Origin: Candidatus Saccharimonadota bacterium
GTDB lineage: Bacteria; Patescibacteriota; Saccharimonadia; Saccharimonadales; JACDBH01
Direction of reading: 5' to 3'
Length of the DNA: 58,783 nt
Assembly (NCBI GenBank): GCA_043743105.1
Contig: JAYTXD010000011.1
Location: 26,001 to 84,783 of the forward strand
Shown piece after piece: positions 821 through 58,304 of the stretch. The notes beneath the pieces are model-generated. The model was not told the origin of the DNA, made no database searches, and saw only the letters and a list, made by a program, of their open reading frames with translations. Every line of letters starts with the position of its first letter. The stretch's first letter is position 1. The position numbers and the translations under genes are program-made.

Positions 821-2623
821 TCATTTTTTTGGGGTGACTCCATAATTGTTTATAAGCATCGTTGCCATATCCGAAAAAATTGGTGCAGCCGTACGTGCAC
901 CAGCAAAACCGCCGATGCCTGGTTCGTTGACGCGTACGAGCACCACGTATTGCGGCTTATCACCGCCCACAAATCCGGCAAATGTCCCTGTAAAACGGTC
1001 GGTATAATAACCCCCAGCTGGGTTGGCAATCTGGGCAGACCCTGTTTTACCGCCTATCATATAGCCCGCTGGCATATTTGGCATGCCATAAAACGTGTGG
1101 TTAGAACTAAAAACATACTGCATCAACGTCGATACGTCAGCGCTAGTAGCTGGTGTTACAACCGTGCGGACCGACTTAATAGCGTTAATGGTCTTTTTGC
1201 CGAAGGCATCGGTGGTCGATTCAACCAAATGAGGTTGATAATACATACCCCCGTTAATAGCCCCCGCATAGGCACCTGCCATTTGCAGTATGGTGGCCGT
1301 CATACCTTGTCCAAATGATGTGTTAGCATAAGTAATATTACGCCCATTACCTGTGTCTGGATCAGGTACAATACCCCCAGTTTCACCCGCCTGCTCAATA
1401 CCAGTTAAAGTACCAAATCCAAAGTGATTCACCATATAGTCATGCCACGTATCCCGCGCCTTTTTGTTAATCTCGCCGCCACCCATTTGTTGCAACATAT
1501 ATACCGCACCCGTATTCAAAGACAGCCGCAGTAAGTCACCAATACTCTTAACACCAGGCCCTCCATCTTCTTCGACGTTACTTACTACATAACCATCAAT
1601 TGGGATTTTGGCTGGGTCGTAGTAGGTCGTATCTTTTGTAATAACGCCCTGGTTTATTGCAGCCGCAGCAGTCAGAGGCTTCATAATTGACCCCACTTCT
1701 AGAGGTGAATCCACAGCCTGGTTACCTAGCGCCGACAAGTCGGTAATACTTGCAAGCTTAGATGGGTCATAGGTTGGGTAATTTGCCATAGCCGTAATAG
1801 CTCCTGTTGTCACATCCATAATCACCGCACTACCACTTTTACTCTTGGCTCTATCAAGCCCCTTTTTTAATATTTCCTCTAGCTGTCGCTGGGCACCAAT
1901 ATCAATTGTCAACTGTACTTTGTCGCCTGACTTTGGGTCTGTCTGAATGTTTTCTTTGTTAGATACCAAAGGCACACCCTGTGCATCAGTAATAGCCTTT
2001 AGCTCACCTGGCGTGCCACCAAGCTTGCTGTTAAGCTTTTCTTCCAATCCGTATTGCCCATTGCCTTCATCATTGACAAATCCAAGCAGCTGCGCCGCCA
2101 ATTGTCCATCTGGATATGTCCTATATGATTCTTCGCGCGTACCAACACCATTAAATTTGAGCTTATTCAACTGTATACTTTGGTCTCTGCTAAGTTTTTT
2201 AGCTAAGACTACATAACGTAATCCTGGCGTTTTTAATAAATCACTCACTTTATTAGTATCACCACCAATAATTTTTGAAATGGCTGCAGCTTCTTTGAGT
2301 GAATCTTTAACGTACTTAGGATCTGCAAACAAGGTATACTTTTTTTCATTAAGTACTAATGGTGTTGACGCGTCGCCGTCATAAGCATATATAGTCCCCC
2401 GCTCTGCTGGTATTTCGTACTGTTTGAGCTGTGACTGCAAGGCCGCTTTTTGATAAAAATCGTGCTTAATGACCTGTAAATAAAACATTCGAACGACAAA
2501 TATAGCTGTTAAAAAAATCAAAGCGCTGTAGATAACACGGACACGTTTAACAGTACTCACTGGCTTTACTTCTGTGGATGCCATTTTAGGTTGGTTTTTG
2601 CGGTACGGTGTTACTGCGGGCAT
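821..2623 (-). CDS. ftsI: Penicillin-binding protein / peptidoglycan D,D-transpeptidase FtsI (class B PBP)
   Basis: 600-aa ORF with an N-terminal TM anchor and the transpeptidase motifs SIMK (SxxK), SNV (SxN) and KTGS (KTG). It lies between ftsL and mraY. Stop codon is TGA. Confidence 0.9.
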   Translation of the reverse strand: MPAVTPYRKNQPKMASTEVKPVSTVKRVRVIYSALIFLTAIFVVRMFYLQVIKHDFYQKAALQSQLKQYEIPAERGTIYAYDGDASTPLVLNEKKYTLFADPKYVKDSLKEAAAISKIIGGDTNKVSDLLKTPGLRYVVLAKKLSRDQSIQLNKLKFNGVGTREESYRTYPDGQLAAQLLGFVNDEGNGQYGLEEKLNSKLGGTPGELKAITDAQGVPLVSNKENIQTDPKSGDKVQLTIDIGAQRQLEEILKKGLDRAKSKSGSAVIMDVTTGAITAMANYPTYDPSKLASITDLSALGNQAVDSPLEVGSIMKPLTAAAAINQGVITKDTTYYDPAKIPIDGYVVSNVEEDGGPGVKSIGDLLRLSLNTGAVYMLQQMGGGEINKKARDTWHDYMVNHFGFGTLTGIEQAGETGGIVPDPDTGNGRNITYANTSFGQGMTATILQMAGAYAGAINGGMYYQPHLVESTTDAFGKKTINAIKSVRTVVTPATSADVSTLMQYVFSSNHTFYGMPNMPAGYMIGGKTGSAQIANPAGGYYTDRFTGTFAGFVGGDKPQYVVLVRVNEPGIGGFAGARTAAPIFSDMATMLINNYGVTPKK

Positions 2624-2634
2624 TTCAACTCTTT

Positions 2635-2758
2635 ATGACTCGCGTACAATAGTGCAGTTTGCGATGAAGCCCGTGTAAGAAAATCGATACGTACTTAAGC
2701 TACAGTAAGATTTTTTGACGCAGGGCTTCACCCAAAATGTGCATTGTACGCGAGTCAT
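2635..2758. repeat. 124-nt nested hairpin element in the ftsL-ftsI spacer
   Basis: Perfect 16-bp arms ATGACTCGCGTACAAT (2635-2650) and ATTGTACGCGAGTCAT (2743-2758), plus an inner 8-bp stem TGAAGCCC (2665-2672) / GGGCTTCA (2723-2730). Confidence 0.85.
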
Positions 2759-2760
2759 AT

Positions 2761-3108
2761 TTAATTTTGAATTACAGCACTAGGCGCAACAGAAACTAAG
2801 GAGTTCGACACGGCACTATTATTGGCGCGGTCAAGTGCCTGTAGGCGCGCAGAAGCAACTTCGAGTTCATCGTGTTCGCTCTGCAGGGCGGTGGCTTGAG
2901 TACGTAGCGCGTTAATTTTATAGCCGTAAGCATTTGTCTTCGTTACTTGAGTTAGGTACAAAAGTCCTAAGACGCTTGCAAGGACAATTAGTACAATGGT
3001 GTTACTAATTGGACCAAAGCCCTTTAGCTCCCGCTTAAAACTAACAGCATTCTGATTTCGCGTCGCGTAACGCTGACGACCCATTGCTAGAGAAGAAGAA
3101 TATGTCAT
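2761..3108 (-). CDS. ftsL: Cell division protein FtsL-like (single TM + coiled coil)
   Basis: 115-aa ORF with one TM helix (NTIVLIVLASVLGLLYL) followed by a coiled-coil segment (ALRTQATALQSEHDELEVASARLQAL). It occupies the canonical position between rsmH and ftsI. Confidence 0.6.
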   Translation of the reverse strand: MTYSSSLAMGRQRYATRNQNAVSFKRELKGFGPISNTIVLIVLASVLGLLYLTQVTKTNAYGYKINALRTQATALQSEHDELEVASARLQALDRANNSAVSNSLVSVAPSAVIQN

Positions 3109-3313
3109 GTTATATTTTGATACTTTTTGTTTTTATATTTGTTGTTTTATAGGTTATGTTTTTAGTCTTTTGGTAAATGTGGTGCACAGGCAGCCTAAAT
3201 AGACTACCCGTGCATACAGTGCCCTTTTAAAGGACTCTGACCCTTACTTTATAAGCTCGGGAGTTACTTTTTACCGTAATTGGCATAAGTGCTATTCCCC
3301 TTTCTTTTTGTTT

Positions 3314-4210
3314 TTATTTTTTAGCAACGGCTCGAAGCTTTGTGCTACGGGCGCGCGGATTGAAAACTAATTCATTTTGTCCCGGAACAACAGGTTTCTT
3401 GGTAAGCAAAATCAGTTCGGTATCATACCTGTCTCCAGCAACATCTTGGAAAAACTGTTTAACGATCCTATCTTCTAAACTTTGGAAAGATAAGACAACT
3501 AGACGCCCTCCCGGGGCAAGCAGTTCCACCCATAACGGTAAGGCTTTTTTGAGGAGCCCCAACTCATCATTCACGGCAATCCGGAGCGCTTGGAACGTTC
3601 GGGTCGCCGGATGGACTTTACTATGCCCCGGCCAAGCCTGGGCAACGATCTGGGCAAGTTGTAGCGTTGAGCTAACAGGACGATTTTTGATTATCCTGTC
3701 CGCAATTTGCGAGGCTTTTGGTTCCTCTCCATATGTTCTCAAGACCCAGGTCAAGGCAGCTTTATCATAATTATTCACTATAATTTCTGCTGTTAATTCC
3801 TGACGTTGATCCATCCTCATATCGAGTGACGCATCTCGGCTAAAGCTAAAGCCACGACTCGCCGTATTAAGGTGCGGTGACGACACGCCTAAATCCGCCA
3901 ACACTAACTGAAACCTACGATTATCTCGTAGCAAACTTCGGGCTGCACTCACATAATCTTCGTGCATTATGCTGATGCCACTACCCACGAACTTCGAACT
4001 CAGCTGGGTTACGGCCATCTCATCACGATCGACGAGCACCGAACCGGCAGCATTAAAGGTGCGTTCCAGTACTTGCTCAGCGTGCCCACCGTACCCGGCC
4101 GTTAGATCGAGATATTTCTCCTCTTTCTTGGGGTCTAAAAAATGAAGCACTTCATCGAGCATTACTGGAATATGTTGTTGGTTTTTGTTTTGGATATTGG
4201 ATTTTTGCAT
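3314..4210 (-). CDS. rsmH: 16S rRNA (cytosine1402-N4)-methyltransferase RsmH
   Basis: 298-aa ORF with HIPVMLDEVLHFL and DLTAGYGGHA SAM-binding motifs typical of RsmH/MraW. It is the second gene of the dcw cluster. Confidence 0.9.
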   Translation of the reverse strand: MQKSNIQNKNQQHIPVMLDEVLHFLDPKKEEKYLDLTAGYGGHAEQVLERTFNAAGSVLVDRDEMAVTQLSSKFVGSGISIMHEDYVSAARSLLRDNRRFQLVLADLGVSSPHLNTASRGFSFSRDASLDMRMDQRQELTAEIIVNNYDKAALTWVLRTYGEEPKASQIADRIIKNRPVSSTLQLAQIVAQAWPGHSKVHPATRTFQALRIAVNDELGLLKKALPLWVELLAPGGRLVVLSFQSLEDRIVKQFFQDVAGDRYDTELILLTKKPVVPGQNELVFNPRARSTKLRAVAKK

Positions 4211-4582
4211 GTTTTTCTTGTTTTTGTTTTTTGCAAGGTCACCGAATCAGCAGTCAACTTTTTGTTTTTTTGGGTGAACGTTTTTGTTTTTGTTGGTTAT
4301 CCGTTAGCTTTTAACGGAAAAAATGAGATACGAGAGCCGGTTTTGAGACCAACTAATTCATCTTTTCCTGATGGTAACAGATATTCTAGAGACTTTCTAA
4401 GTGTGTGAGGTGGAGTTTTGGGAGGTGTTTTGTTTGAAAAAGGTGCGAGGGTGTTTTATGAAGTGGTTATCCCCTTGTTTCCCACTTGTTGACTGCCGAA
4501 TCGCTAATCTCGAGTCGGACTTACTTTTTGCTGCTTGCCTAGATTGTTAAAGATAAAACACTAAATCAGAAAAATGCGTTGC

Positions 4583-7032: not shown

Positions 7033-7150
7033 TATACTCGACTTACGCAAACTACCGAGCCGTCTGACACTGCTCTACTGGATAAAAACAGTTTTTACCA
7101 CAGCCGAATCAGTCCCAGATCGGCACACTATTTTGCGTAAGCCCGAGTTA
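7033..7150. repeat. Palindromic intergenic repeat family 1, long copy
   Basis: Both ends match the reverse complement of the 36340-36410 copy: TATACTCG-ACTTACGCAAACTACCGAGCCGTC and TCGGCACACTATTTTGCGTAAGCCCGAGTTA. This copy has about 52 nt of extra central sequence. Confidence 0.75.
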
Positions 7151-7200
7151 AGCTGTGGTGGTTGCTTCCGAATTGTGGGCTTTTTTACTCCCAATGGCTA

Positions 7201-19464: not shown

Positions 19465-19512
19465 ATTGTCTTTATAGTACCATAACCGCTACACCACGGT
19501 GAAGCCTTTACG

Positions 19513-19558
19513 CTATAGCCCCCGCAAATCAAAATGTGTAAATTTTGATTTGCGGGGG
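19513..19558. repeat. Repeat family 2, minimal hairpin copy
   Basis: CTATAGC followed by perfect 17-bp arms CCCCCGCAAATCAAAAT (19519-19535) / ATTTTGATTTGCGGGGG (19542-19558) with a 6-nt loop. Confidence 0.8.
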
Positions 19559-19563
19559 CAATA

Positions 19564-21666: not shown

Positions 21667-22779
21667 TTATTGTACCTCGATGTTAATAATTCCGTCCGAA
21701 AGCAGCACTTCTAATTTTTGCCCAGGTTTAGTTTGCGTGGTAGAACGGACTGCTGTTTTACCCTGACGCAACACTGCATATCCCCGTTTTAAAATAGTTT
21801 GAGGATTCAAAATTGACAATAGTTTAACTGCGTAACTAATAGCTTCCCGCTTTGTAACAAAAAGATCCTGCACGGTTTGATGCAGTGTGTCTCGCTGGAT
21901 GCCAACATCTTTTTTACCTGCTTGCACCGGTGCACTTAACAAACGCCCCGTTTCGGCCCGTACTGTTGTAAGCTCACTTAATAACTGCGCACGATCGGGC
22001 ACAAGTAGCTCGGCAGCATTACTAGGCGTACTAGCTCGCACATCGGCAGCGAGTTCGGCCAAACTCGTGTCAACTTCGTGTCCAATAGCAACAAGTGTTG
22101 GAATCCTACTAGCCGCCACAGCCCGCGTCACGGATTCCAAGTTGAATGTTTGCAAATCATCAGCACTGCCACCACCCCGTATTATCACTAATACCTCGGG
22201 TGGGGTGCCCATAGCATTAAAGTGCTCCACTGCCCGCACAATCTGCCCAGCCGCTGGCTCACCTTGCACCTGTACGTCAGCGTGCTCAATAGTTATCCCA
22301 CGAAAACGAACATTAATAATCTTTATAAAGTCAGCGTATGCCGCCGACTCGCCACTCGTTATAAGTCCTATGCGCTCTGGAGGGTATGGTAGCGCCCGTT
22401 TACGACTATCCTCAAACAGTCCTTCACGCGTTAACTTTTTTAACAGCAAATCAAAGGCTTTTTTTATTGTTCCCTCGCCCGCCAGCGAAATATTTTGGAC
22501 ATTTACACTAAACCCGTAGAGCTGATGTAAACGCGGACTGCCCGTAACACGCAAGGTCATACCCTCTTCAAGTGGTCCAGGCAGGCTATACACTGTGCCA
22601 AAAAACTTAACACTCGAATAGTCGTCTTTTAGGTCAAAATACACCCAGCGCCCCTTACTTACACGGAAATTAGCCAACTCACCTTCAACTACAACGCTCG
22701 GGAAAGCAAATTCGAATGTTTGGTTAACAAGCCCTACGAAATCACTCGGTGTTAGTGCACTAGACGACAGTATTTCCAC
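21667..22779 (-). CDS. xseA: Exodeoxyribonuclease VII large subunit
   Basis: 370-aa ORF with a GTG start, an N-terminal OB fold (VVVEGELANFRVSKGRWVYFDLKD) and the catalytic region IGLITSGESAAYADF...RGGGSADDL. Confidence 0.85.
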   Translation of the reverse strand: MEILSSSALTPSDFVGLVNQTFEFAFPSVVVEGELANFRVSKGRWVYFDLKDDYSSVKFFGTVYSLPGPLEEGMTLRVTGSPRLHQLYGFSVNVQNISLAGEGTIKKAFDLLLKKLTREGLFEDSRKRALPYPPERIGLITSGESAAYADFIKIINVRFRGITIEHADVQVQGEPAAGQIVRAVEHFNAMGTPPEVLVIIRGGGSADDLQTFNLESVTRAVAASRIPTLVAIGHEVDTSLAELAADVRASTPSNAAELLVPDRAQLLSELTTVRAETGRLLSAPVQAGKKDVGIQRDTLHQTVQDLFVTKREAISYAVKLLSILNPQTILKRGYAVLRQGKTAVRSTTQTKPGQKLEVLLSDGIINIEVQ

Positions 22780-22798
22780 TATCTACCTATGCCCTTAA

Positions 22799-22870
22799 AG
22801 GTTAAAATTTGTGAAAAATATACAAGCTTATTTATTAATAGGCTTGGTATATTTTTCACAAATTTTACCT
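22799..22870. repeat. 72-nt AT-rich long hairpin between the UPF0104 gene and xseA
   Basis: 29-nt arms AGGTTAAAATTTGTGAAAAATATACAAGC (22799-22827) / GCTTGGTATATTTTTCACAAATTTTACCT (22842-22870). The core AAAATTTGTGAAAAATATAC is perfectly paired, with two 1-nt bulges. Confidence 0.8.
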
Positions 22871-22909
22871 CTTTAATCATCGTAGCTATATTAGCAGTAA
22901 TACTGTCGC

Positions 22910-24019
22910 TTAGTGCACAGGAGGGGTTCCATCGTGGTGCTCCTTCGCGTCAATTCGCTGCTCTGATACTTCAACGGCACGTTCTATGTGGTTACCCGAA
23001 CGCTTCAATGCGCGCTGGTACAAATAATAGCCAATCGGCAGCGAGTACAACATATTAAGAACCCGATAAACAACCGTTGCTGAGAGCGCTAAAGCTTTAT
23101 CGACACCAGCACTCGTTAAGGTAGCGGTCATTAGACCCTCATAAATACCAACACCTCCTGGCAAAATAGCTACAAGGCCAGCAAAGTTAGCCACTGCGTA
23201 CGCAATAATAAGCGCCCCAGGGTTTACGAACGTTCCAAAGGCTAAATACACTGCATAAATGGTCAGGACATCAGTTACATTAACGAGTAATGCCCAAAGT
23301 AACGGCTTTTTTAAATTGCGCCAGTCCTGACTCAGTACCATATAGTCACGGTGCAAGTCTTCCATGGTGCTCTCTACCTTAGCAATATTAATTGTCTCGC
23401 GTTTATGCCGTCTAAACACACCAATAATTTTATTAAGTGCTTTTGGTAACCAGCCGGTAAAAGCCTTAATCCTAACCTTATCACTAATGATATATGTACC
23501 TACAACTGCGCCAAATAGCGTCATAAAAGCAATCGACGAACTAATCAAAATTGTCAGTGGGCTGGTATGTCTACGCAGGGCCAAAATAAGCATGCCTAAA
23601 AATAACAGGGCCAAAAATGAAATAAAGGTCAGTGCAAAACGCACAATTTGCGCCAGCGTACTCTTAGCCGTACTAATTCCCGACTGCTTTAGCCGCAAAC
23701 TCAGATAGCTAAAACCACTCACACCTCCGCTTGGAAAGACGTGATTTACAAAGTTTAGCTCAATCGTTATAGACATCATGGTACTCAGCTTTAAATCTTC
23801 GCCTTGACTCTTAAAATAATCCTTATAAAGCCGTGCAACCGAATAATAATTTATGGCCTGCAACGGGATCATCAGCAGTAAGGCGGCCGCATTTAGCTGA
23901 CCTAGTTTTTTAAAAGCAGCAATAATAGCTGCGCGCGATATAATCACCAAAACCACTAGTGCGCCAATAGTAAACACATTTACCCAAAACTTGATATCTT
24001 TTTTCATTGCTTTAGCCAT
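22910..24019 (-). CDS. UPF0104/flippase-like (lysyl-phosphatidylglycerol synthase TM-region-like) membrane protein
   Basis: 369-aa ORF with about eight TM helices and the overall pattern of the UPF0104 family. A perfect TATAAT lies 12 nt upstream of the ATG. Confidence 0.5.
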   Translation of the reverse strand: MAKAMKKDIKFWVNVFTIGALVVLVIISRAAIIAAFKKLGQLNAAALLLMIPLQAINYYSVARLYKDYFKSQGEDLKLSTMMSITIELNFVNHVFPSGGVSGFSYLSLRLKQSGISTAKSTLAQIVRFALTFISFLALLFLGMLILALRRHTSPLTILISSSIAFMTLFGAVVGTYIISDKVRIKAFTGWLPKALNKIIGVFRRHKRETINIAKVESTMEDLHRDYMVLSQDWRNLKKPLLWALLVNVTDVLTIYAVYLAFGTFVNPGALIIAYAVANFAGLVAILPGGVGIYEGLMTATLTSAGVDKALALSATVVYRVLNMLYSLPIGYYLYQRALKRSGNHIERAVEVSEQRIDAKEHHDGTPPVH

Positions 24020-27872: not shown

Positions 27873-27957
27873 TTATGGCCAGCTTATTGTCGACAAGGGC
27901 TATATAGCCATCCAGAAATCAAAACCTGTCTTTTTGACCGCGCCTGACTGGCCATAG
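27873..27957. repeat. Repeat family 2, partial copy in inverse orientation
   Basis: 27917-27955 is the reverse complement of the core TATGGCCAGTCAGGCGCGGTCAAAAAGACATGTTTTGATTT with one mismatch. It has its own 9-bp inverted repeat TATGGCCAG / CTGGCCATA. Confidence 0.7.
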
Positions 27958-28021
27958 GTAATGGTACGGTGCAGCCAAGCCCAGAGGCATCCGCCCCGAA
28001 TGTGCCTTTGGCTGAGTGCGG

Positions 28022-35244: not shown

Positions 35245-36330
35245 TTAGGCTTCAATGATGGAGTCGGTGTAGGCATCGATAAAACCGTCTAGATCGCCTG
35301 CTAATACGCCCTCGGTGTCGCTTGTTTCGTGAGAAGTGCGTAAATCTTTTACCATTTTGTATGGATGCAACACATAGCTACGTATTTGGTTTCCCCACTC
35401 AGCTGACTGGTTAATACCCTTTAGGTCAGCTAGTTTTTCTAGGTGCTGTTCGAGCTGCAGTTGAACGAGTCGTGAACGGATGATGGTCATGGCAGTTTCA
35501 CGGTTTTGGAGCTGCGAGCGCTCGTTTTGGATAGCAACCGTAATACCTGTTGGAATGTGGGTTATCCGAACAGCAGAATCGGTCGTATTCACACTTTGCC
35601 CACCCTTACCACCACTTCTATACACATCAATCTTAAGGTCTTTTTCATCAATTTCAAGAAGCTCAGGCTGGTCAATTTTAGGCACCACCTCTACTTTTGC
35701 AAATGAGGTCTGACGCAGTGAATCCGAGTTAAACGGGCTCAACCGTACCAAACGGTGCACGCCATGCTCACCTTTAAGTTTGCCGTATGCCAGTGGGCCA
35801 GCAATTTCGAACGTTACACTTTTGATGCCCGCTTCTTCGCCTACCGATTCGGCGATTGTCGTAAGAGTAAAGTCGTGTGCTTCAGTCCAGCGAACGTACA
35901 TACGGAGCAGCATTTGTGCCCAATCTTGCGCATCGGTACCACCTGCACCAGCATAGATACTCATAATAACGTTGCCCTCATCATGTGGTTGGCTGTATCT
36001 AAGTTCGCCCTTTAGTGCTTTAAATTTTTTGGCAAGGCTACTCAGCTGCTGAGAAAGTTCCACTTGCATCATTTCATCGTTGAGCGAACCTAGCTCTTGT
36101 AAATCTGTAGCCTCCTCAAGTAGTTGCTGCCATGGTTCAACTCTTGCTTTGAGCGCAGACTGTTCTTTCATTACAATGCCAGCTTTTTGGGCATCTTGCC
36201 AAAAGTTTGGGTCGGTAGTTTGTTTTGTCAGCGTAGAAAGTTTTTTAACCAATTCTTCAAGTTTAACTCTCTCGCAGGCACTGGTGATAATTTTTGCTTG
36301 TTCGACAATTTGTTTTTGTAGCTGTTCCAT
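35245..36330 (-). CDS. prfB: Peptide chain release factor 2 (single uninterrupted ORF, no programmed frameshift)
   Basis: 361-aa ORF with the SPF tripeptide (RLSPFNSD) and GGQ (SGGKGGQSVN). The N-terminal region is in frame. Confidence 0.9.
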   Translation of the reverse strand: MEQLQKQIVEQAKIITSACERVKLEELVKKLSTLTKQTTDPNFWQDAQKAGIVMKEQSALKARVEPWQQLLEEATDLQELGSLNDEMMQVELSQQLSSLAKKFKALKGELRYSQPHDEGNVIMSIYAGAGGTDAQDWAQMLLRMYVRWTEAHDFTLTTIAESVGEEAGIKSVTFEIAGPLAYGKLKGEHGVHRLVRLSPFNSDSLRQTSFAKVEVVPKIDQPELLEIDEKDLKIDVYRSGGKGGQSVNTTDSAVRITHIPTGITVAIQNERSQLQNRETAMTIIRSRLVQLQLEQHLEKLADLKGINQSAEWGNQIRSYVLHPYKMVKDLRTSHETSDTEGVLAGDLDGFIDAYTDSIIEA

Positions 36331-36337
36331 TATAAAT

Positions 36338-36343
36338 AGTATA
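36338..36343 (-). promoter_or_regulatory. -10 box TATACT 7 nt upstream of the prfB ATG, formed by the terminus of the family 1 repeat
   Basis: The minus strand reads GCCCGAGTATACT-ATTTATA-ATG. AGTATACT is itself a palindrome. Confidence 0.45.
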
Positions 36344-36410
36344 CTCGGGCTTACGCAAAATGGCGTACCGACCTGTGACTGCTCGGTAGTTTAGCGTAGG
36401 CCCGAGTATA
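36340..36410. repeat. Palindromic intergenic repeat family 1, short copy
   Basis: TATACTCGGGCTTACGC (36340-36356) pairs with GCGTAGGCCCGAGTATA (36394-36410) with one mismatch. It fills the spacer between the M16 peptidase gene and prfB. Confidence 0.8.
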
Positions 36411-36412
36411 GC

Positions 36413-37717
36413 CTAAAGAGGTTTGGAGCTTTCGTCCTGCCATAACTGGCTCATCAGTGCATGTAGATCGTCTGCTAACGGCTTACCTGCGCTACCTAAA
36501 AACCCAAGTGCCCAGGTTTTGTCTTGAAACATAAGCTCGGTTGTTTTAACAATATTGGTCTTTGTTACTGCCTTAATACGCTCGGGGATTGCATAATAGT
36601 CGTCAATTTCGTCTTCAAAGTAATAACGGTTACTGTATCCAGCTGCTGTACCACCAACTGTTTGCCCGCTACGCTGATATCGGCCTAACATATACTGTTT
36701 TGCGGCATCAATATCAGCTTCTACTATTTGGCCATCACGCACGGCATTAAGCTCTCGAACTATAATTTCAAACAAAGCTTTAGCGTTTGACGGCTGAATT
36801 TGAGCGCCAAACCACCAAGATACGTTGCTAGTCATTTGATTAAAACCAGAGCTCATCGAATATACTAGGCCTTTTTCTCGGGCCGAACCCAATATGCGTG
36901 AATAAAGAGTTTCTGTCAGCATAGTATTAATTAGCTGCCCAGCATCCCACTGATCTTCATCTAACCTTTCTAGATGAAAGGTATCCATAATAAAATAAAG
37001 GTTCTTAACACTTTGGTTGCGCAAATATAGTGGTTTTGTTAACTTAAGCGGTGTTTCAACCGGCAAAGCTATTCGGCCATTACCTTTTGGCAAAGACATA
37101 TCTTCCAACATGCGCAAAATACTAGCTCTATGACCTTTAATGCTGCCCGCAATAATAAAGCGCATATTACTGGTGGTATGTGTGCGTTTATAATGTTCTT
37201 CGACGTCTTTTTTGTTGTTATTGTGCAGTAGTTTTAGGCGTTCACGGTCGGTTTTGCCCTGATAGCCACAATATGTACGCATAGCAAGGCTAAGGTGCCT
37301 GAAGTGGTTATTGGCGCGACCATTAAGTTCCTCACGAACATTGCCCATTTCGGCCTCAAATTCTTCGTCCAAAAATAGCGGCTGGCTAATCGAAAGTAGC
37401 ATCAAATCAAAAATACGTTCCCATTCAAAGGCTGCACACTCGGCTTCGTAAGTAATGTCGTATACACCAGTGCTTGCGTTGTTATAGGCTCCGTTTTTTT
37501 CAAATTCTGCCTGAAATATCCTTGCTTTAGGGTGTAGCTTATTGGCACCTAGTAGCACGTGTTCCATAAGGTGCGGGGTTTCCCACTTTGCCGGGTCAAC
37601 CAAATATTCTCCAGCACGAAAGTTAAACTCATAGGTCATAACCAGTGCGTCAGGCACGTCAATAAGTAAGCCTTCGGCTCCGTTTGCAAGTACTACTTTT
37701 TCTACAGTGTGTTTCAT
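36413..37717 (-). CDS. M16-family (insulinase/pitrilysin-like) zinc peptidase
   Basis: 434-aa ORF with the inverted zincin motif HLMEH near the N-terminus and a two-lobed size typical of M16. Confidence 0.75.
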   Translation of the reverse strand: MKHTVEKVVLANGAEGLLIDVPDALVMTYEFNFRAGEYLVDPAKWETPHLMEHVLLGANKLHPKARIFQAEFEKNGAYNNASTGVYDITYEAECAAFEWERIFDLMLLSISQPLFLDEEFEAEMGNVREELNGRANNHFRHLSLAMRTYCGYQGKTDRERLKLLHNNNKKDVEEHYKRTHTTSNMRFIIAGSIKGHRASILRMLEDMSLPKGNGRIALPVETPLKLTKPLYLRNQSVKNLYFIMDTFHLERLDEDQWDAGQLINTMLTETLYSRILGSAREKGLVYSMSSGFNQMTSNVSWWFGAQIQPSNAKALFEIIVRELNAVRDGQIVEADIDAAKQYMLGRYQRSGQTVGGTAAGYSNRYYFEDEIDDYYAIPERIKAVTKTNIVKTTELMFQDKTWALGFLGSAGKPLADDLHALMSQLWQDESSKPL

Positions 37718-37793: not shown

Positions 37794-40391
37794 CTACTTT
37801 TTCCTCTTTTTGGCTTTAGACTTATTTTTACGTTCTGTTTTGCGTTGTTTTTGCTTTTTGTTTTTTGATGCAACAGCCTTCGTGGCGCTTTTTGCGTTGG
37901 GGTTAAAATCTTGTTCGTCGAACTCTTCGACATCAAGTATTTTGTCTGCATTGTCAACCGACTGACGAGCAGCACGAGTAAGGTCGGTTTCGGTTGGCTC
38001 ATCTATATCCGTAGGACGCGCGTTAAATAATGTACGAAGTACATCGTTACGAAGCGTAATCTGCATGGCTGCGAACAAGACTTGTGACTGACGACGGTAT
38101 TCGACCAACGGGTCACGTTGCCCGACGCTCAGCCAATGGATACCTTCACGCAAATGGTCCATATTTTCGAGGTGCTGCATCCACAAATTGTCGAGGACTT
38201 GCAGATAGACATCACGCTCTAGCTTGCGCATTAGCTCATCACCAAAGGTAGTTTCGCGACCGTCGTAGAGCTCTAGCGCTTCTTGTTTAAGTACGTCTGC
38301 AAACTTGCTTGCATCCGCATCAAAAACACGGTCCAATGTAGCCTCTTCAAATGGAAACACTTCACTAATTATATTTTCAAATTTATCGGTTGTCGAATCT
38401 GGAGAAGCAGCAAGGGCCGCAACTTCTTCTTTGATGAATTCTTTAATACGCGTCTTGATTGTTGCCTGAAGTAAAATCTCGCGGCGCATGATGTAAATAG
38501 CCTTACGGTGACGGTTCATGACGTCATCGTATTGAACGACGTTTTTACGCTGGTCAAAATTAAAGCCTTCAACTTTTTTTTGCGCTGCTTCAAGACTTTT
38601 ACTAATTATACGGTTTTGAATTGGTGTCTCGTCGTCAACCTTAAGGCGCTCCATAATAGAACCAATACGGTCACCGCCGAAAATACGCAACAGTTCATCT
38701 TCGGTACTTACAAAAAACTGAGTTTCGCCTGGGTCACCCTGGCGACCAGAACGTCCACGGAGCTGATTGTCGATACGCCGTGATTCGTGACGCTCGCTAC
38801 CAAGCACAAACAAACCACCCAGCTCTTTGACGTCTTCATCAAGGACAATGTCGGTACCACGACCAGCAATGTTGGTCGCTAGTGTAACCGCACCTTTTTG
38901 ACCTGCTTTTGCAACAATAGTTGCTTCACGCTCGTTGTTTTTAGCGTTTAAAACTTGGTGAGGAATATTGGCCTTTTTAAGCAGATTGCCAAGTTCTTCG
39001 TTTTTTTCAATTGATACGGTACCAATAAGTACTGGCTGACCCTTGGTGTGCAGTTTCTTAACCTCATTAACAATTGCCTTGAACTTACCCTTTTCGGTCT
39101 TATAAATTCGGTCGGTGTCGTCCTTACGGGCTATTTTGCGGTTACTTGGAATCTCGACTACATCCAGCTTATATATCTGATGAAACTCCTCGGCTTCAGT
39201 AAGTGCGGTACCAGTCATACCACCTAGCTTTTCGTAGAGTCGGAAGTAGTTTTGGAAAGATATAGTTGCAAGCGTCATAGACTCTTCTTGCACTTCAACA
39301 CCTTCTTTGGCTTCTATGGCCTGATGAAGGCCCTCGTTATAGCGACGCCCTTTAAGCATACGCCCCGTAAACTCATCGACAATCACCACTTCGCCGTCAT
39401 TGCTAACAACATAGTCTTTGTCGCGTTTAAAAAGTAGCTCTGCCTTAAGTGCTTGCTCAAGGTGATAAATATTACGGATGTTTTCGGTAGAATAGAGGCT
39501 TTTAAGACCTAGGATCTTTTCGATTTTTTCGACACCTTCATCAGTCAAAATAACCGTGCGGCGCTTTTCGTCAATCTCGTACATACCCTCTTTAAGTTGC
39601 TTTACGACTTTAGAAAATTGGCCATAACTGGCGCCGCTAGCTACAGCTGGTGCCGATATAATAAGCGGCGTACGAGCTTCATCAATTAAGATTGAGTCGA
39701 CTTCGTCAACGATTGCATAATGCAAGTCTCGCTGGCGTAGCTGTTCTACTTCGCGGACCATATTGTCACGCAAGTAGTCAAAGCCGAGCTCATTATTAGT
39801 ACTGTAGGTAATATCTGCCTGGTACGCTTCTTGACGAGTTGAAGGTTTAAGATGCTTGAAGCGGCTATCGTCATGACTGTCGTCAGAAAAGTTAGGGTCA
39901 TATATAAATGATTGGTCAGGAATAATAACACCGGTGCTAAGGCCTAAGAAGTGATATACTGGTGCCATCCAACCAGCACCTATACGAGCAAGGTAGTCGT
40001 TAACGGTAACAAGGTGTGCGCCTTTTCCTGCAAGTGCATTGAGATACAGTGGCAAAGTTGCAACAAGCGTTTTGCCTTCACCGGTTTTCATTTCGCCTAC
40101 GTTACCCTCGTGCAATACCATGCCGCCAATTAGCTGCACATCAAAGTGACGTTGCTTAAGTGTACGAAACGCAGCTTCGCGCACCAATGCAAATGCATCC
40201 GGAAGTAGTGCGTCGAGCGTTTCTTTATCGAAACGCTTTTTAAGCACGGCCGTTTGGGCTTTTAGTTGCGCATCAGACATTCTTTGATACTTTGGTTCAA
40301 GCTTATTAACAACGGCCACGCGTTTACGCAAGCGTTTAATGGTTTTTGCTTGCGGATCGCCCAAAACACGCTTTAAGAGTCGGTTATTCAT
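37794..40391 (-). CDS. secA: Preprotein translocase ATPase SecA (Lys-rich tail instead of zinc-finger C-terminus)
   Basis: 865-aa ORF with MKTGEGKTLVATL, DEVDSILIDEARTPLIIS and TNMAGRGTDI-like (TNIAGRGTDI) motifs. The C-terminal 40 aa are KKQKQRK-type and contain no Cys. Confidence 0.95.
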   Translation of the reverse strand: MNNRLLKRVLGDPQAKTIKRLRKRVAVVNKLEPKYQRMSDAQLKAQTAVLKKRFDKETLDALLPDAFALVREAAFRTLKQRHFDVQLIGGMVLHEGNVGEMKTGEGKTLVATLPLYLNALAGKGAHLVTVNDYLARIGAGWMAPVYHFLGLSTGVIIPDQSFIYDPNFSDDSHDDSRFKHLKPSTRQEAYQADITYSTNNELGFDYLRDNMVREVEQLRQRDLHYAIVDEVDSILIDEARTPLIISAPAVASGASYGQFSKVVKQLKEGMYEIDEKRRTVILTDEGVEKIEKILGLKSLYSTENIRNIYHLEQALKAELLFKRDKDYVVSNDGEVVIVDEFTGRMLKGRRYNEGLHQAIEAKEGVEVQEESMTLATISFQNYFRLYEKLGGMTGTALTEAEEFHQIYKLDVVEIPSNRKIARKDDTDRIYKTEKGKFKAIVNEVKKLHTKGQPVLIGTVSIEKNEELGNLLKKANIPHQVLNAKNNEREATIVAKAGQKGAVTLATNIAGRGTDIVLDEDVKELGGLFVLGSERHESRRIDNQLRGRSGRQGDPGETQFFVSTEDELLRIFGGDRIGSIMERLKVDDETPIQNRIISKSLEAAQKKVEGFNFDQRKNVVQYDDVMNRHRKAIYIMRREILLQATIKTRIKEFIKEEVAALAASPDSTTDKFENIISEVFPFEEATLDRVFDADASKFADVLKQEALELYDGRETTFGDELMRKLERDVYLQVLDNLWMQHLENMDHLREGIHWLSVGQRDPLVEYRRQSQVLFAAMQITLRNDVLRTLFNARPTDIDEPTETDLTRAARQSVDNADKILDVEEFDEQDFNPNAKSATKAVASKNKKQKQRKTERKNKSKAKKRKK

Positions 40392-42148: not shown

Positions 42149-42169
42149 GCGCGTAAAATGATTAAACTC

Positions 42170-42338
42170 CTATAGCACCCGCAAATCAAAATATGTAAAT
42201 TTTGAGTGATGGATGACTGAGCTATAACTACTGGTTTTGTGACAAAGCATATCCGTAGATATGGTGCGAAGCAAACCAGTAGTTATGGCCAGTCAGGCGC
42301 GGTCAAAAAGACATGTTTTGATTTACCGGGGGCTATAG
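42170..42338. repeat. Repeat family 2, composite copy with about 120-nt internal insertion
   Basis: The left end CTATAGCACCCGCAAATCAAAATATGTAAATTTTGA matches the 19513 copy, and the right end TTTTGATTTACCGGGGGCTATAG closes it. The interior has its own roughly 26-bp imperfect inverted repeat (GACTGAGCTATAACTACTGGTTT / AAACCAGTAGTTATGGCCAGTC). Confidence 0.8.
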
Positions 42339-42348
42339 TTAAACTTTA

Positions 42349-58187: not shown

Positions 58188-58295
58188 GCCGGCAAACAAA
58201 ATATCAGATGAATCAGAACCAGTTGGCTGAAAAATAATCCTGTAGTTATAGCCAGTCAGGCGCGGTCAAAAAGACATGTTTTGATTTGGAATGGC
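58188..58295. repeat. Repeat family 2, partial copy
   Basis: 58241-58287 (TGTAGTTATAGCCAGTCAGGCGCGGTCAAAAAGACATGTTTTGATTT) matches 42279-42325 with two mismatches. A degenerate left arm CCGGCAAACAAAATAT lies at about 58189-58204. Confidence 0.7.
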
Positions 58296-58304
58296 TTGAT
58301 GTAT

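Follow-up and report, generated by a model that had tools for sequence, protein, structure and literature searches.

What is a 71-nt palindromic stretch doing between two genes of a very reduced genome, and does it act on its neighbours or is it a product of movement? The stretch (36340-36410) lies in a window of 58,783 nt, the whole of the DNA analysed here (C11:26001-84783), from host genome G000, an assembly of 686,513 bp in 43 contigs with 44% G+C and 86% completeness. It runs TATACTCGGGCTTACGC...GCGTAGGCCCGAGTATA between the stop codon of an M16-family peptidase gene and the ATG of prfB, and can be written as TATA-CTCGGGCTTACGCAAAATGGCGTACCGACCTGTGACTGCTCGGTAGTTTAGCGTAGGCCCGAG-TATA. Folded as gene-strand RNA it forms a hairpin of -35.6 kcal/mol (z = -5.4), a stability equalled by none of 200 shuffled sequences, so that the hairpin element placed between these two genes by the initial annotation is indeed present. 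All the genes around it are on the minus strand: prfB, encoding release factor 2 in a single 361-aa frame (35245..36330; scoring 448.6 bits with TIGR00020, whose cut-off is 370), the M16 peptidase gene (36413..37717; Pfam Peptidase_M16 and M16_C), whose stop codon is 2 nt from the distal TATA, and its neighbour secA (37794..40391). Two TATACT hexamers were also found on the minus strand where they had been reported, one 7 nt before the prfB ATG (proximal; 36338..36343, read 36343 to 36338) and one at the other end of the stretch (distal; 36405..36410, read 36410 to 36405).

The stretch belongs to a dispersed family. An exact terminal pattern, ACTSG(N1-2)CTTACGCAAA, occurs 33 times in G000 compared with 0 occurrences of a reversed-pattern control, an excess far above chance expectation, and pairing of the ends gave at least 21 complete elements of 65-166 bp plus 14 solo or truncated ends, which bears out the earlier description of a dispersed repeat with further copies across the genome. 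A terminal inverted repeat of 15-17 bp, CTSGR(G)CTTACGCAAA (the family termini can also be written as CTSGRCTTACGCAAA), is carried on both ends of 21 copies. Two main subfamilies differ inside these ends, A having CTCGGGCTTACGCAAAATGGCGTGCCGA... and B having CTGGACTTACGCAAAATCGCTCGTTCCCAGG..., while a few copies are chimeras or a third type. Two chimeric elements (C43:44888-45043 and C38:21017-21177) have left and right halves from different subfamilies, which suggests recombination between copies. Each subfamily is represented by full forms of 151-166 bp, middle ones of 112-116 bp and short ones of 65-75 bp, and alignment showed the shorter forms to be internal deletions (a series of 166, about 115 and 67-69 bp). 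The prfB copy is one of these A derivatives. Its 63-bp body (36344..36406) retains, of the 166-bp full-length copies, the left arm as far as ..GACCTGTGACT and, on the right, the arm starting with GCTCGGTAG..., with a left terminal inverted repeat identified by the terminal pattern (CTCGGGCTTACGCAAA; 36344..36359, plus strand) and a right one (reverse complement CTCGGGCCTACGCTAAA; 36390..36406, minus strand) with two mismatches to the consensus. One pair of deletion breakpoints is common to three short A copies at different loci; the prfB copy was shortened at a pair unique to it. Within G000 the copies agree at 89-97%, and nested insertions occur in the family.

De novo ORF calls (705 ORFs) made 90% of the genome coding and placed each of the 21 paired copies between genes, five of them spanned only by short or doubtful ORFs; the element itself is non-coding, the ORFs across it being short and spurious. 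Neighbouring genes are arranged in tandem around 12 copies, convergently around 5 and divergently around 4. All small repeats together amount to 22,032 bp, about 3.2% of the 0.69-Mb genome, and at about 20 of its contig ends the sequence breaks off within related families of palindromes, implying that such repeats limit the assembly of genomes of this kind. Other palindromic, MITE-like families are present in the window itself (42162-42347, 19512-19563, 27901-27965 and 58236-58302), with ends TATAGCCCCC... or TATAGCCAT...; they comprise full copies of ~170 bp, with a central ATCYATAGAT-like palindrome as in the long A and B forms, together with short derivatives and fragments, and they end beside TATA or TTTA. 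These families also lie at about 20 contig ends and are the main cause of contig breaks. Two further structures were noted in the window: a 126-bp palindromic element at 2634-2759 (ends TATGACTCGCGTACAAT...ATTGTACGCGAGTCATA), with a second copy at C19:13701-13803, and a 164-bp inverted repeat at 22755-22918 (GTGCACTAGACGACAGTATT...AATACTGTCGCTTAGTGCAC), which is single-copy in the assembly.

A second A-subfamily copy within the window, of the middle size class, has a 111-bp body at 7037..7147, a GH1 gene on one side and a gene for a PIF1-like helicase on the other, and flanks of TATA (7033-7036) and TTAA (7148-7151). Including its flanks (7033-7151) it folds to -41.5 kcal/mol (z = -5.6). The match of the prfB stretch to both ends of this longer element, estimated by eye as roughly 85-90%, was close to what BLAST returned (87% over 39 nt and 85% over ~32 nt). 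A TATACT at every terminus, as also proposed, was found at both ends of 36340-36410 and at the left end of 7033-7151, but the right end of the latter reads GAGTTAA.

Evidence that the family inserts as a mobile element came from its flanks. Bodies have the form CT...AG, with T-N-N-A around all 21 paired copies and one of the 42 flanks deviating (41/42 fit TNNA, versus 7.3% genome-wide); 16 of the 42 are TATA. The four flanking bases are identical on the two sides in 10 of 21 copies (permutation mean 4.2, p about 0.001), about half of the copies having no such identity, and the next four bases outward are identical in 0 of 21. The same held in G030, a genome of the same order but another family, in which 16 of 30 pairs in the 371 kb read had matching flanks, or 15 of 29 after removal of one end-sharing pair (permutation mean 4.4, with 15 reached by 0 of 100,000 shuffles); matching flanks there include TCTA, TAGA, TGTA and TACA. 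We write the duplication as 4 bp, although its outermost T and A may be part of the element ends, which makes the true length 2-4 bp.

At prfB the insertion can be read directly against unoccupied sites. The window has cat-tataaatag-TATA-[63 bp]-TATA-gcctaaag, whereas two genomes of the same genus have a single TATA between matching flanks at the M16-prfB junction: cat-tggtgttag-TATA-gcctaa in G001 and cat-tctaaatag-TATA-tcgtacc in G002. The TATA adjoining prfB (36340..36343) and that adjoining the M16 gene (36407..36410) are the two copies of the target duplicated on insertion. The element is missing at prfB, too, in contigs of other sediment samples, whose identity to the window is about 91-95%: one (X3, depth 2) joins 36343 to 36409 with 14 unrelated bases between, skipping the element, and another (X5, depth 3.4) departs from the window sequence at 36343. 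Two other A copies (C11:17891 and window 7037) are likewise absent from G001 and G002, with flanks too diverged for the duplication to be read, so that the clean empty-site comparison is that of one insertion site, prfB. Absence of the element at prfB from relatives as close as the 91-95% identical contigs argues against a needed function.

The sequence at 36344-36406 is hence a real and recently inserted MITE (a miniature transposable element with inverted repeats): short and non-coding, bounded by terminal inverted repeats and a target-site duplication, and dispersed in copies that are present or absent among relatives. The family is new, and the kind of element is ordinary. With considerable confidence, we interpret it as a non-autonomous DNA transposon of a family found so far only in Saccharibacteria-type genomes.

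The distribution of the family is extremely patchy. Of 61 related genomes, 6 have exact ends (33 occurrences in G000, 98 in G030, 3 in G046 and one each in G027, G044 and G050), and none were detected in the 2 same-genus or 19 same-family genomes searched. A full-length A query matched, by BLAST, only G000 apart from two weak matches of the central part in G057, and the A-type arm had 0 loci in a collection scan covering one genome per species. That scan found the B-type end at 47 loci, every one a short copy, in two records of Candidatus Saccharibacteria MAGs; metagenome contigs had 1 locus and viral contigs 4, of which three look like chance matches in coding sequence and one is a true 161-bp copy. 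Abundance in two distant Saccharibacteria genomes, and absence of matches in the two congeners searched, points to horizontal spread, and the copy on a virus-catalogued contig is noted alongside this pattern. Between G000 and G030 the termini of copies are identical while interiors are only about 74% alike, as expected if a transposase binds the termini.

The virus-catalogued contig (IMG/VR; L138) carries a diversity-generating retroelement at 1214-4371, comprising a reverse transcriptase, bAvd and a template/variable repeat pair of 127 nt with 87% identity, with a target gene having an FGE-sulfatase-like domain; the insertion point of the 161-bp MITE, which has matching ends, lies between bAvd and the variable repeat. 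In G030, contig ends (C2:1-450, C2:88420-88838, C1:96327-96528 and C8:1-202) consist of MITEs nested in MITEs, where the central TATAGA-like palindrome of one element serves as the insertion target for other families.

How could such an element enter the junction upstream of prfB and leave the gene expressed? The variable duplicated target points to staggered cutting, and we propose that an enzyme making such cuts, and encoded outside the present assembly, would move the element in trans by binding its conserved ends. The 63-bp copy inserted into the TATA of a pre-existing TATACT 7 nt upstream of the prfB start. One duplicated TATA, with the native CT, keeps a TATACT before prfB, and the second, with the CT of the element, makes a further TATACT, which still has the original sequence upstream of it and would read through the hairpin. 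With one TATACT kept and another made, expression of prfB would be expected to survive the insertion. The hairpin itself is probably a by-product of palindromic transposon ends and not a selected RNA.

Whether TATACT is likely to act as a -10 box was assessed from motif counts before the start codons of 507 de novo ORFs of at least 150 aa in G000. TANNNT hexamers numbered 53, 32, 40 and 30 at gaps of 6-9 nt and were at about background (~16) at a gap of 10. The commonest hexamers 6-10 nt before these starts were TATACT (29 occurrences, background 3.6) and TATAAT (28, background 4.6), and TATA[AC]T was found at this spacing in 57 of the 507 ORFs (~11% of starts), often preceded by TGn. This peak is probably a signature of leaderless transcripts and suggests that many G000 mRNAs may be leaderless. 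A separate Shine-Dalgarno peak lies 5-12 nt before starts, and the genome encodes a full-length sigma-70. By this motif test the proximal TATACT, with its 7-nt gap, fits the genome-wide leaderless-type spacing, and the statistics indicate that it is probably the -10 box of a leaderless prfB mRNA. However, TATACT occurs at equal spacing before prfB in G001 and G002, both without the element, and the box is therefore ancestral and not supplied by the insertion. The distal TATACT, a putative box made of duplicated TATA and element CT, has kept the native sequence upstream of it and points into the element. The proposal that the element supplies -10 boxes is thus partly right, in that TATACT is the top -10-like hexamer and the distal box was created by insertion, but it fails for the box next to prfB.

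The strongest competing explanation takes the element as a portable regulatory module, whose insertion donates a promoter, terminator or RNA hairpin and whose copies are retained for that function. Its appeal lies in the use of the leading -10-like hexamer of G000 and in the geometry of insertion, since entry into a TATA (the sequence of 16 of the 42 flanks) yields an inward-facing TATACT at each end. Two of the 21 copies, at prfB and before the left gene at C26:757, place TATACT 6-7 nt before a start codon (the junction box at C26:757 is at 6 nt), and Correia elements have been reported to form promoters at their ends (PMC2649163, PMC10969869). Against this, the box at prfB predates the insertion, and a consensus scan for -35/-10 pairs (hexamers 16-18 nt apart) gave four promoter-like sites, none of them at either TATACT. 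The terminator role suggested initially found no backing, as the hairpin is followed by TATACTATTTATA without a T-run and 0 terminator-like sites were predicted in 35800-37000. Nor did the suggestion of an RNA-structure module hold up: no Rfam match was obtained, and the transcribed strand gave the more stable fold in just 3 of the 12 tandem, co-oriented copies, so that the absence of strand bias gives no sign of the hairpin being selected as RNA. Copies also lie in all gene contexts, tandem, convergent and divergent. We accordingly regard retention as a regulatory module as improbable, and prefer a MITE that happened to insert into a likely promoter.

The search for an autonomous partner or a transposase able to move the element turned up none. 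Pfam models for DDE_Tnp_1 (PF01609), DDE_3 (PF13358), rve (PF00665), DDE_Tnp_1_2 (PF13586), DDE_Tnp_4 (PF13359), DDE_5 (PF13546) and DDE_Tnp_1_4 (PF13701) had no match in G000 (86% complete); PF13843 also had none, but it is uninformative, having no match in control genomes either. No IS-sized multi-copy repeat was found in G000 or in 371 kb of G030, the few longer G000 repeats being pairs of 68-76% identity, and collection scans with the element ends returned only short copies. Candidate partners or autonomous forms were examined and rejected: rve matches in G030 belong to a decayed IS3-like fragment without matching ends; inverted ends 2.4 kb apart in G030 enclose ordinary genes (DprA-like and others) and no transposase; a 12.6-kb stretch of G000 C7 between two solo ends holds polA, rpoD and dnaG; and where G030 contig ends extend over 400 bp into repeats, several MITEs have inserted into one another and there is no ORF.

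The only transposase-like genes found in G000 were two Y1_Tnp (HUH) ORFs of 204-208 aa (PF01797, 40.2 bits against a cut-off of 23), IS200-like or RAYT-like, at C15:14815-15429 and at about 24.6-25.2 kb of C38, associated with private hairpin pairs AAGAACTGTTCTT and TAAGGTCTCACCTTA. These genes raise the alternative that one of the two, as a RAYT-like transposase, has spread the family as repeats of the REP/REPIN type, and it is consistent with this that MITE-rich G030 has Y1 genes whereas the congeners G001 and G002, free of the MITE, have none, and that small subterminal hairpins can be seen by eye in the element arms. Nevertheless, each Y1 gene is bracketed by its own hairpin, which occurs only twice in G000, and not by MITE ends; and the NCBIfam RAYT model (NF047646) scored 39.9 bits, below its cut-off of 80. 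Across genomes the fit to the element distribution is poor: Y1_Tnp was found in 19 of 61 genomes, being present in 15 of 55 without the terminal pattern and missing in 2 of 6 with it. Single-strand transposition by IS200/IS605 Y1 enzymes is not known to leave a variable duplicated target, and the variable duplication seen here is unlike its product. Spread by these Y1 enzymes is thus very unlikely. As for the original label of REP/MITE-like, the MITE part stands, given the terminal inverted repeats and target-site duplication, whereas REP in the strict, RAYT-associated sense does not apply to repeats that are absent from the flanks of both Y1 genes.

That the element is a gene for a structured non-coding RNA, or an RNA regulating prfB in cis, as a very stable hairpin directly upstream of prfB might suggest, is scarcely credible, as no Rfam family reached its gathering threshold (the sole match being to a plant microRNA model, MIR439, at 22.6 bits versus 90), the element is missing at prfB in congeners and in the 91-95% identical contigs, copies occur in every orientation and context, and their stability has no strand bias.

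The recently inserted MITE is of mild interest chiefly for its setting, which combines a reduced genome, a missing transposase and insertion into a likely leaderless promoter that was preserved by duplication. Even a very reduced genome can evidently undergo a recent burst of transposition. The preference for TATA, along with the TATACT/TATAAT signal at ~11% of starts, provides a testable case of a transposon entering a promoter without silencing the gene. More speculatively, palindromic families in G000 all end beside TATA/TNNA, and several (the A and B long forms, Y and Z) have a central ATCTATAGAT-like palindrome. It is conceivable, though we consider it a long shot, that A, B and the other palindromic families of G000 form a Saccharibacteria-specific, Correia-like superfamily of MITEs that aims at the -10 box of its own 0.7-Mb reduced genome, rebuilds the consensus TATACT on both sides through a 4-bp duplication and CT termini and so donates or duplicates leaderless-type promoters, moved by an enzyme outside the recognised transposase families or by one that a phage or the host bacterium supplies externally.

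Among known systems, REP/REPIN-RAYT repeats share with the present family the form of extragenic palindromes in a genome encoding Y1 (HUH) transposase-like genes, but the present repeats end in long terminal inverted repeats, carry a duplicated target and do not flank those genes. IS-derived bacterial MITEs such as MITEAba12, RUP and ERIC are, like the present family, described as multicopy, intergenic elements with terminal inverted repeats, target-site duplications and nested insertions, and sigma-70-like boxes have been reported in several bacterial MITE families (PMC10969869). Many IS-derived families can be paired with a parent IS whose ends match theirs; none was found for the family described here. 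The words Patescibacteria and "candidate phyla" are absent from the main text of that MITE review (PMC10969869), and full-text searches of the literature collection used, with papers judged mostly by title and abstract, turned up none among those listed that deals with MITEs of Saccharibacteria or of the candidate phyla radiation.

Correia elements of Neisseria (CREE/NEMIS) and the present family are unrelated in end sequence and in phylum. The duplicated site is TA in Correia elements and TNNA with variable middle bases here. Binding of IHF and cleavage by RNase III are established for Correia elements; promoter activity at the junction has been reported for them and is putative here, on the basis of motifs. 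Yet both are, by the published description of Correia elements, short non-coding palindromes with terminal inverted repeats and a duplicated target, mostly intergenic, with -10-like boxes possible at the junction and no known transposase (PMC2649163). Correia elements also fall by internal deletion into three size classes, of 153-157, 104-108 and 69-73 bp (PMC2649163), compared with 151-166, 112-116 and 65-75 bp here. By description, and without claiming membership, the MITE family at prfB therefore appears most like Correia elements in its architecture, its size classes and its mode of working.
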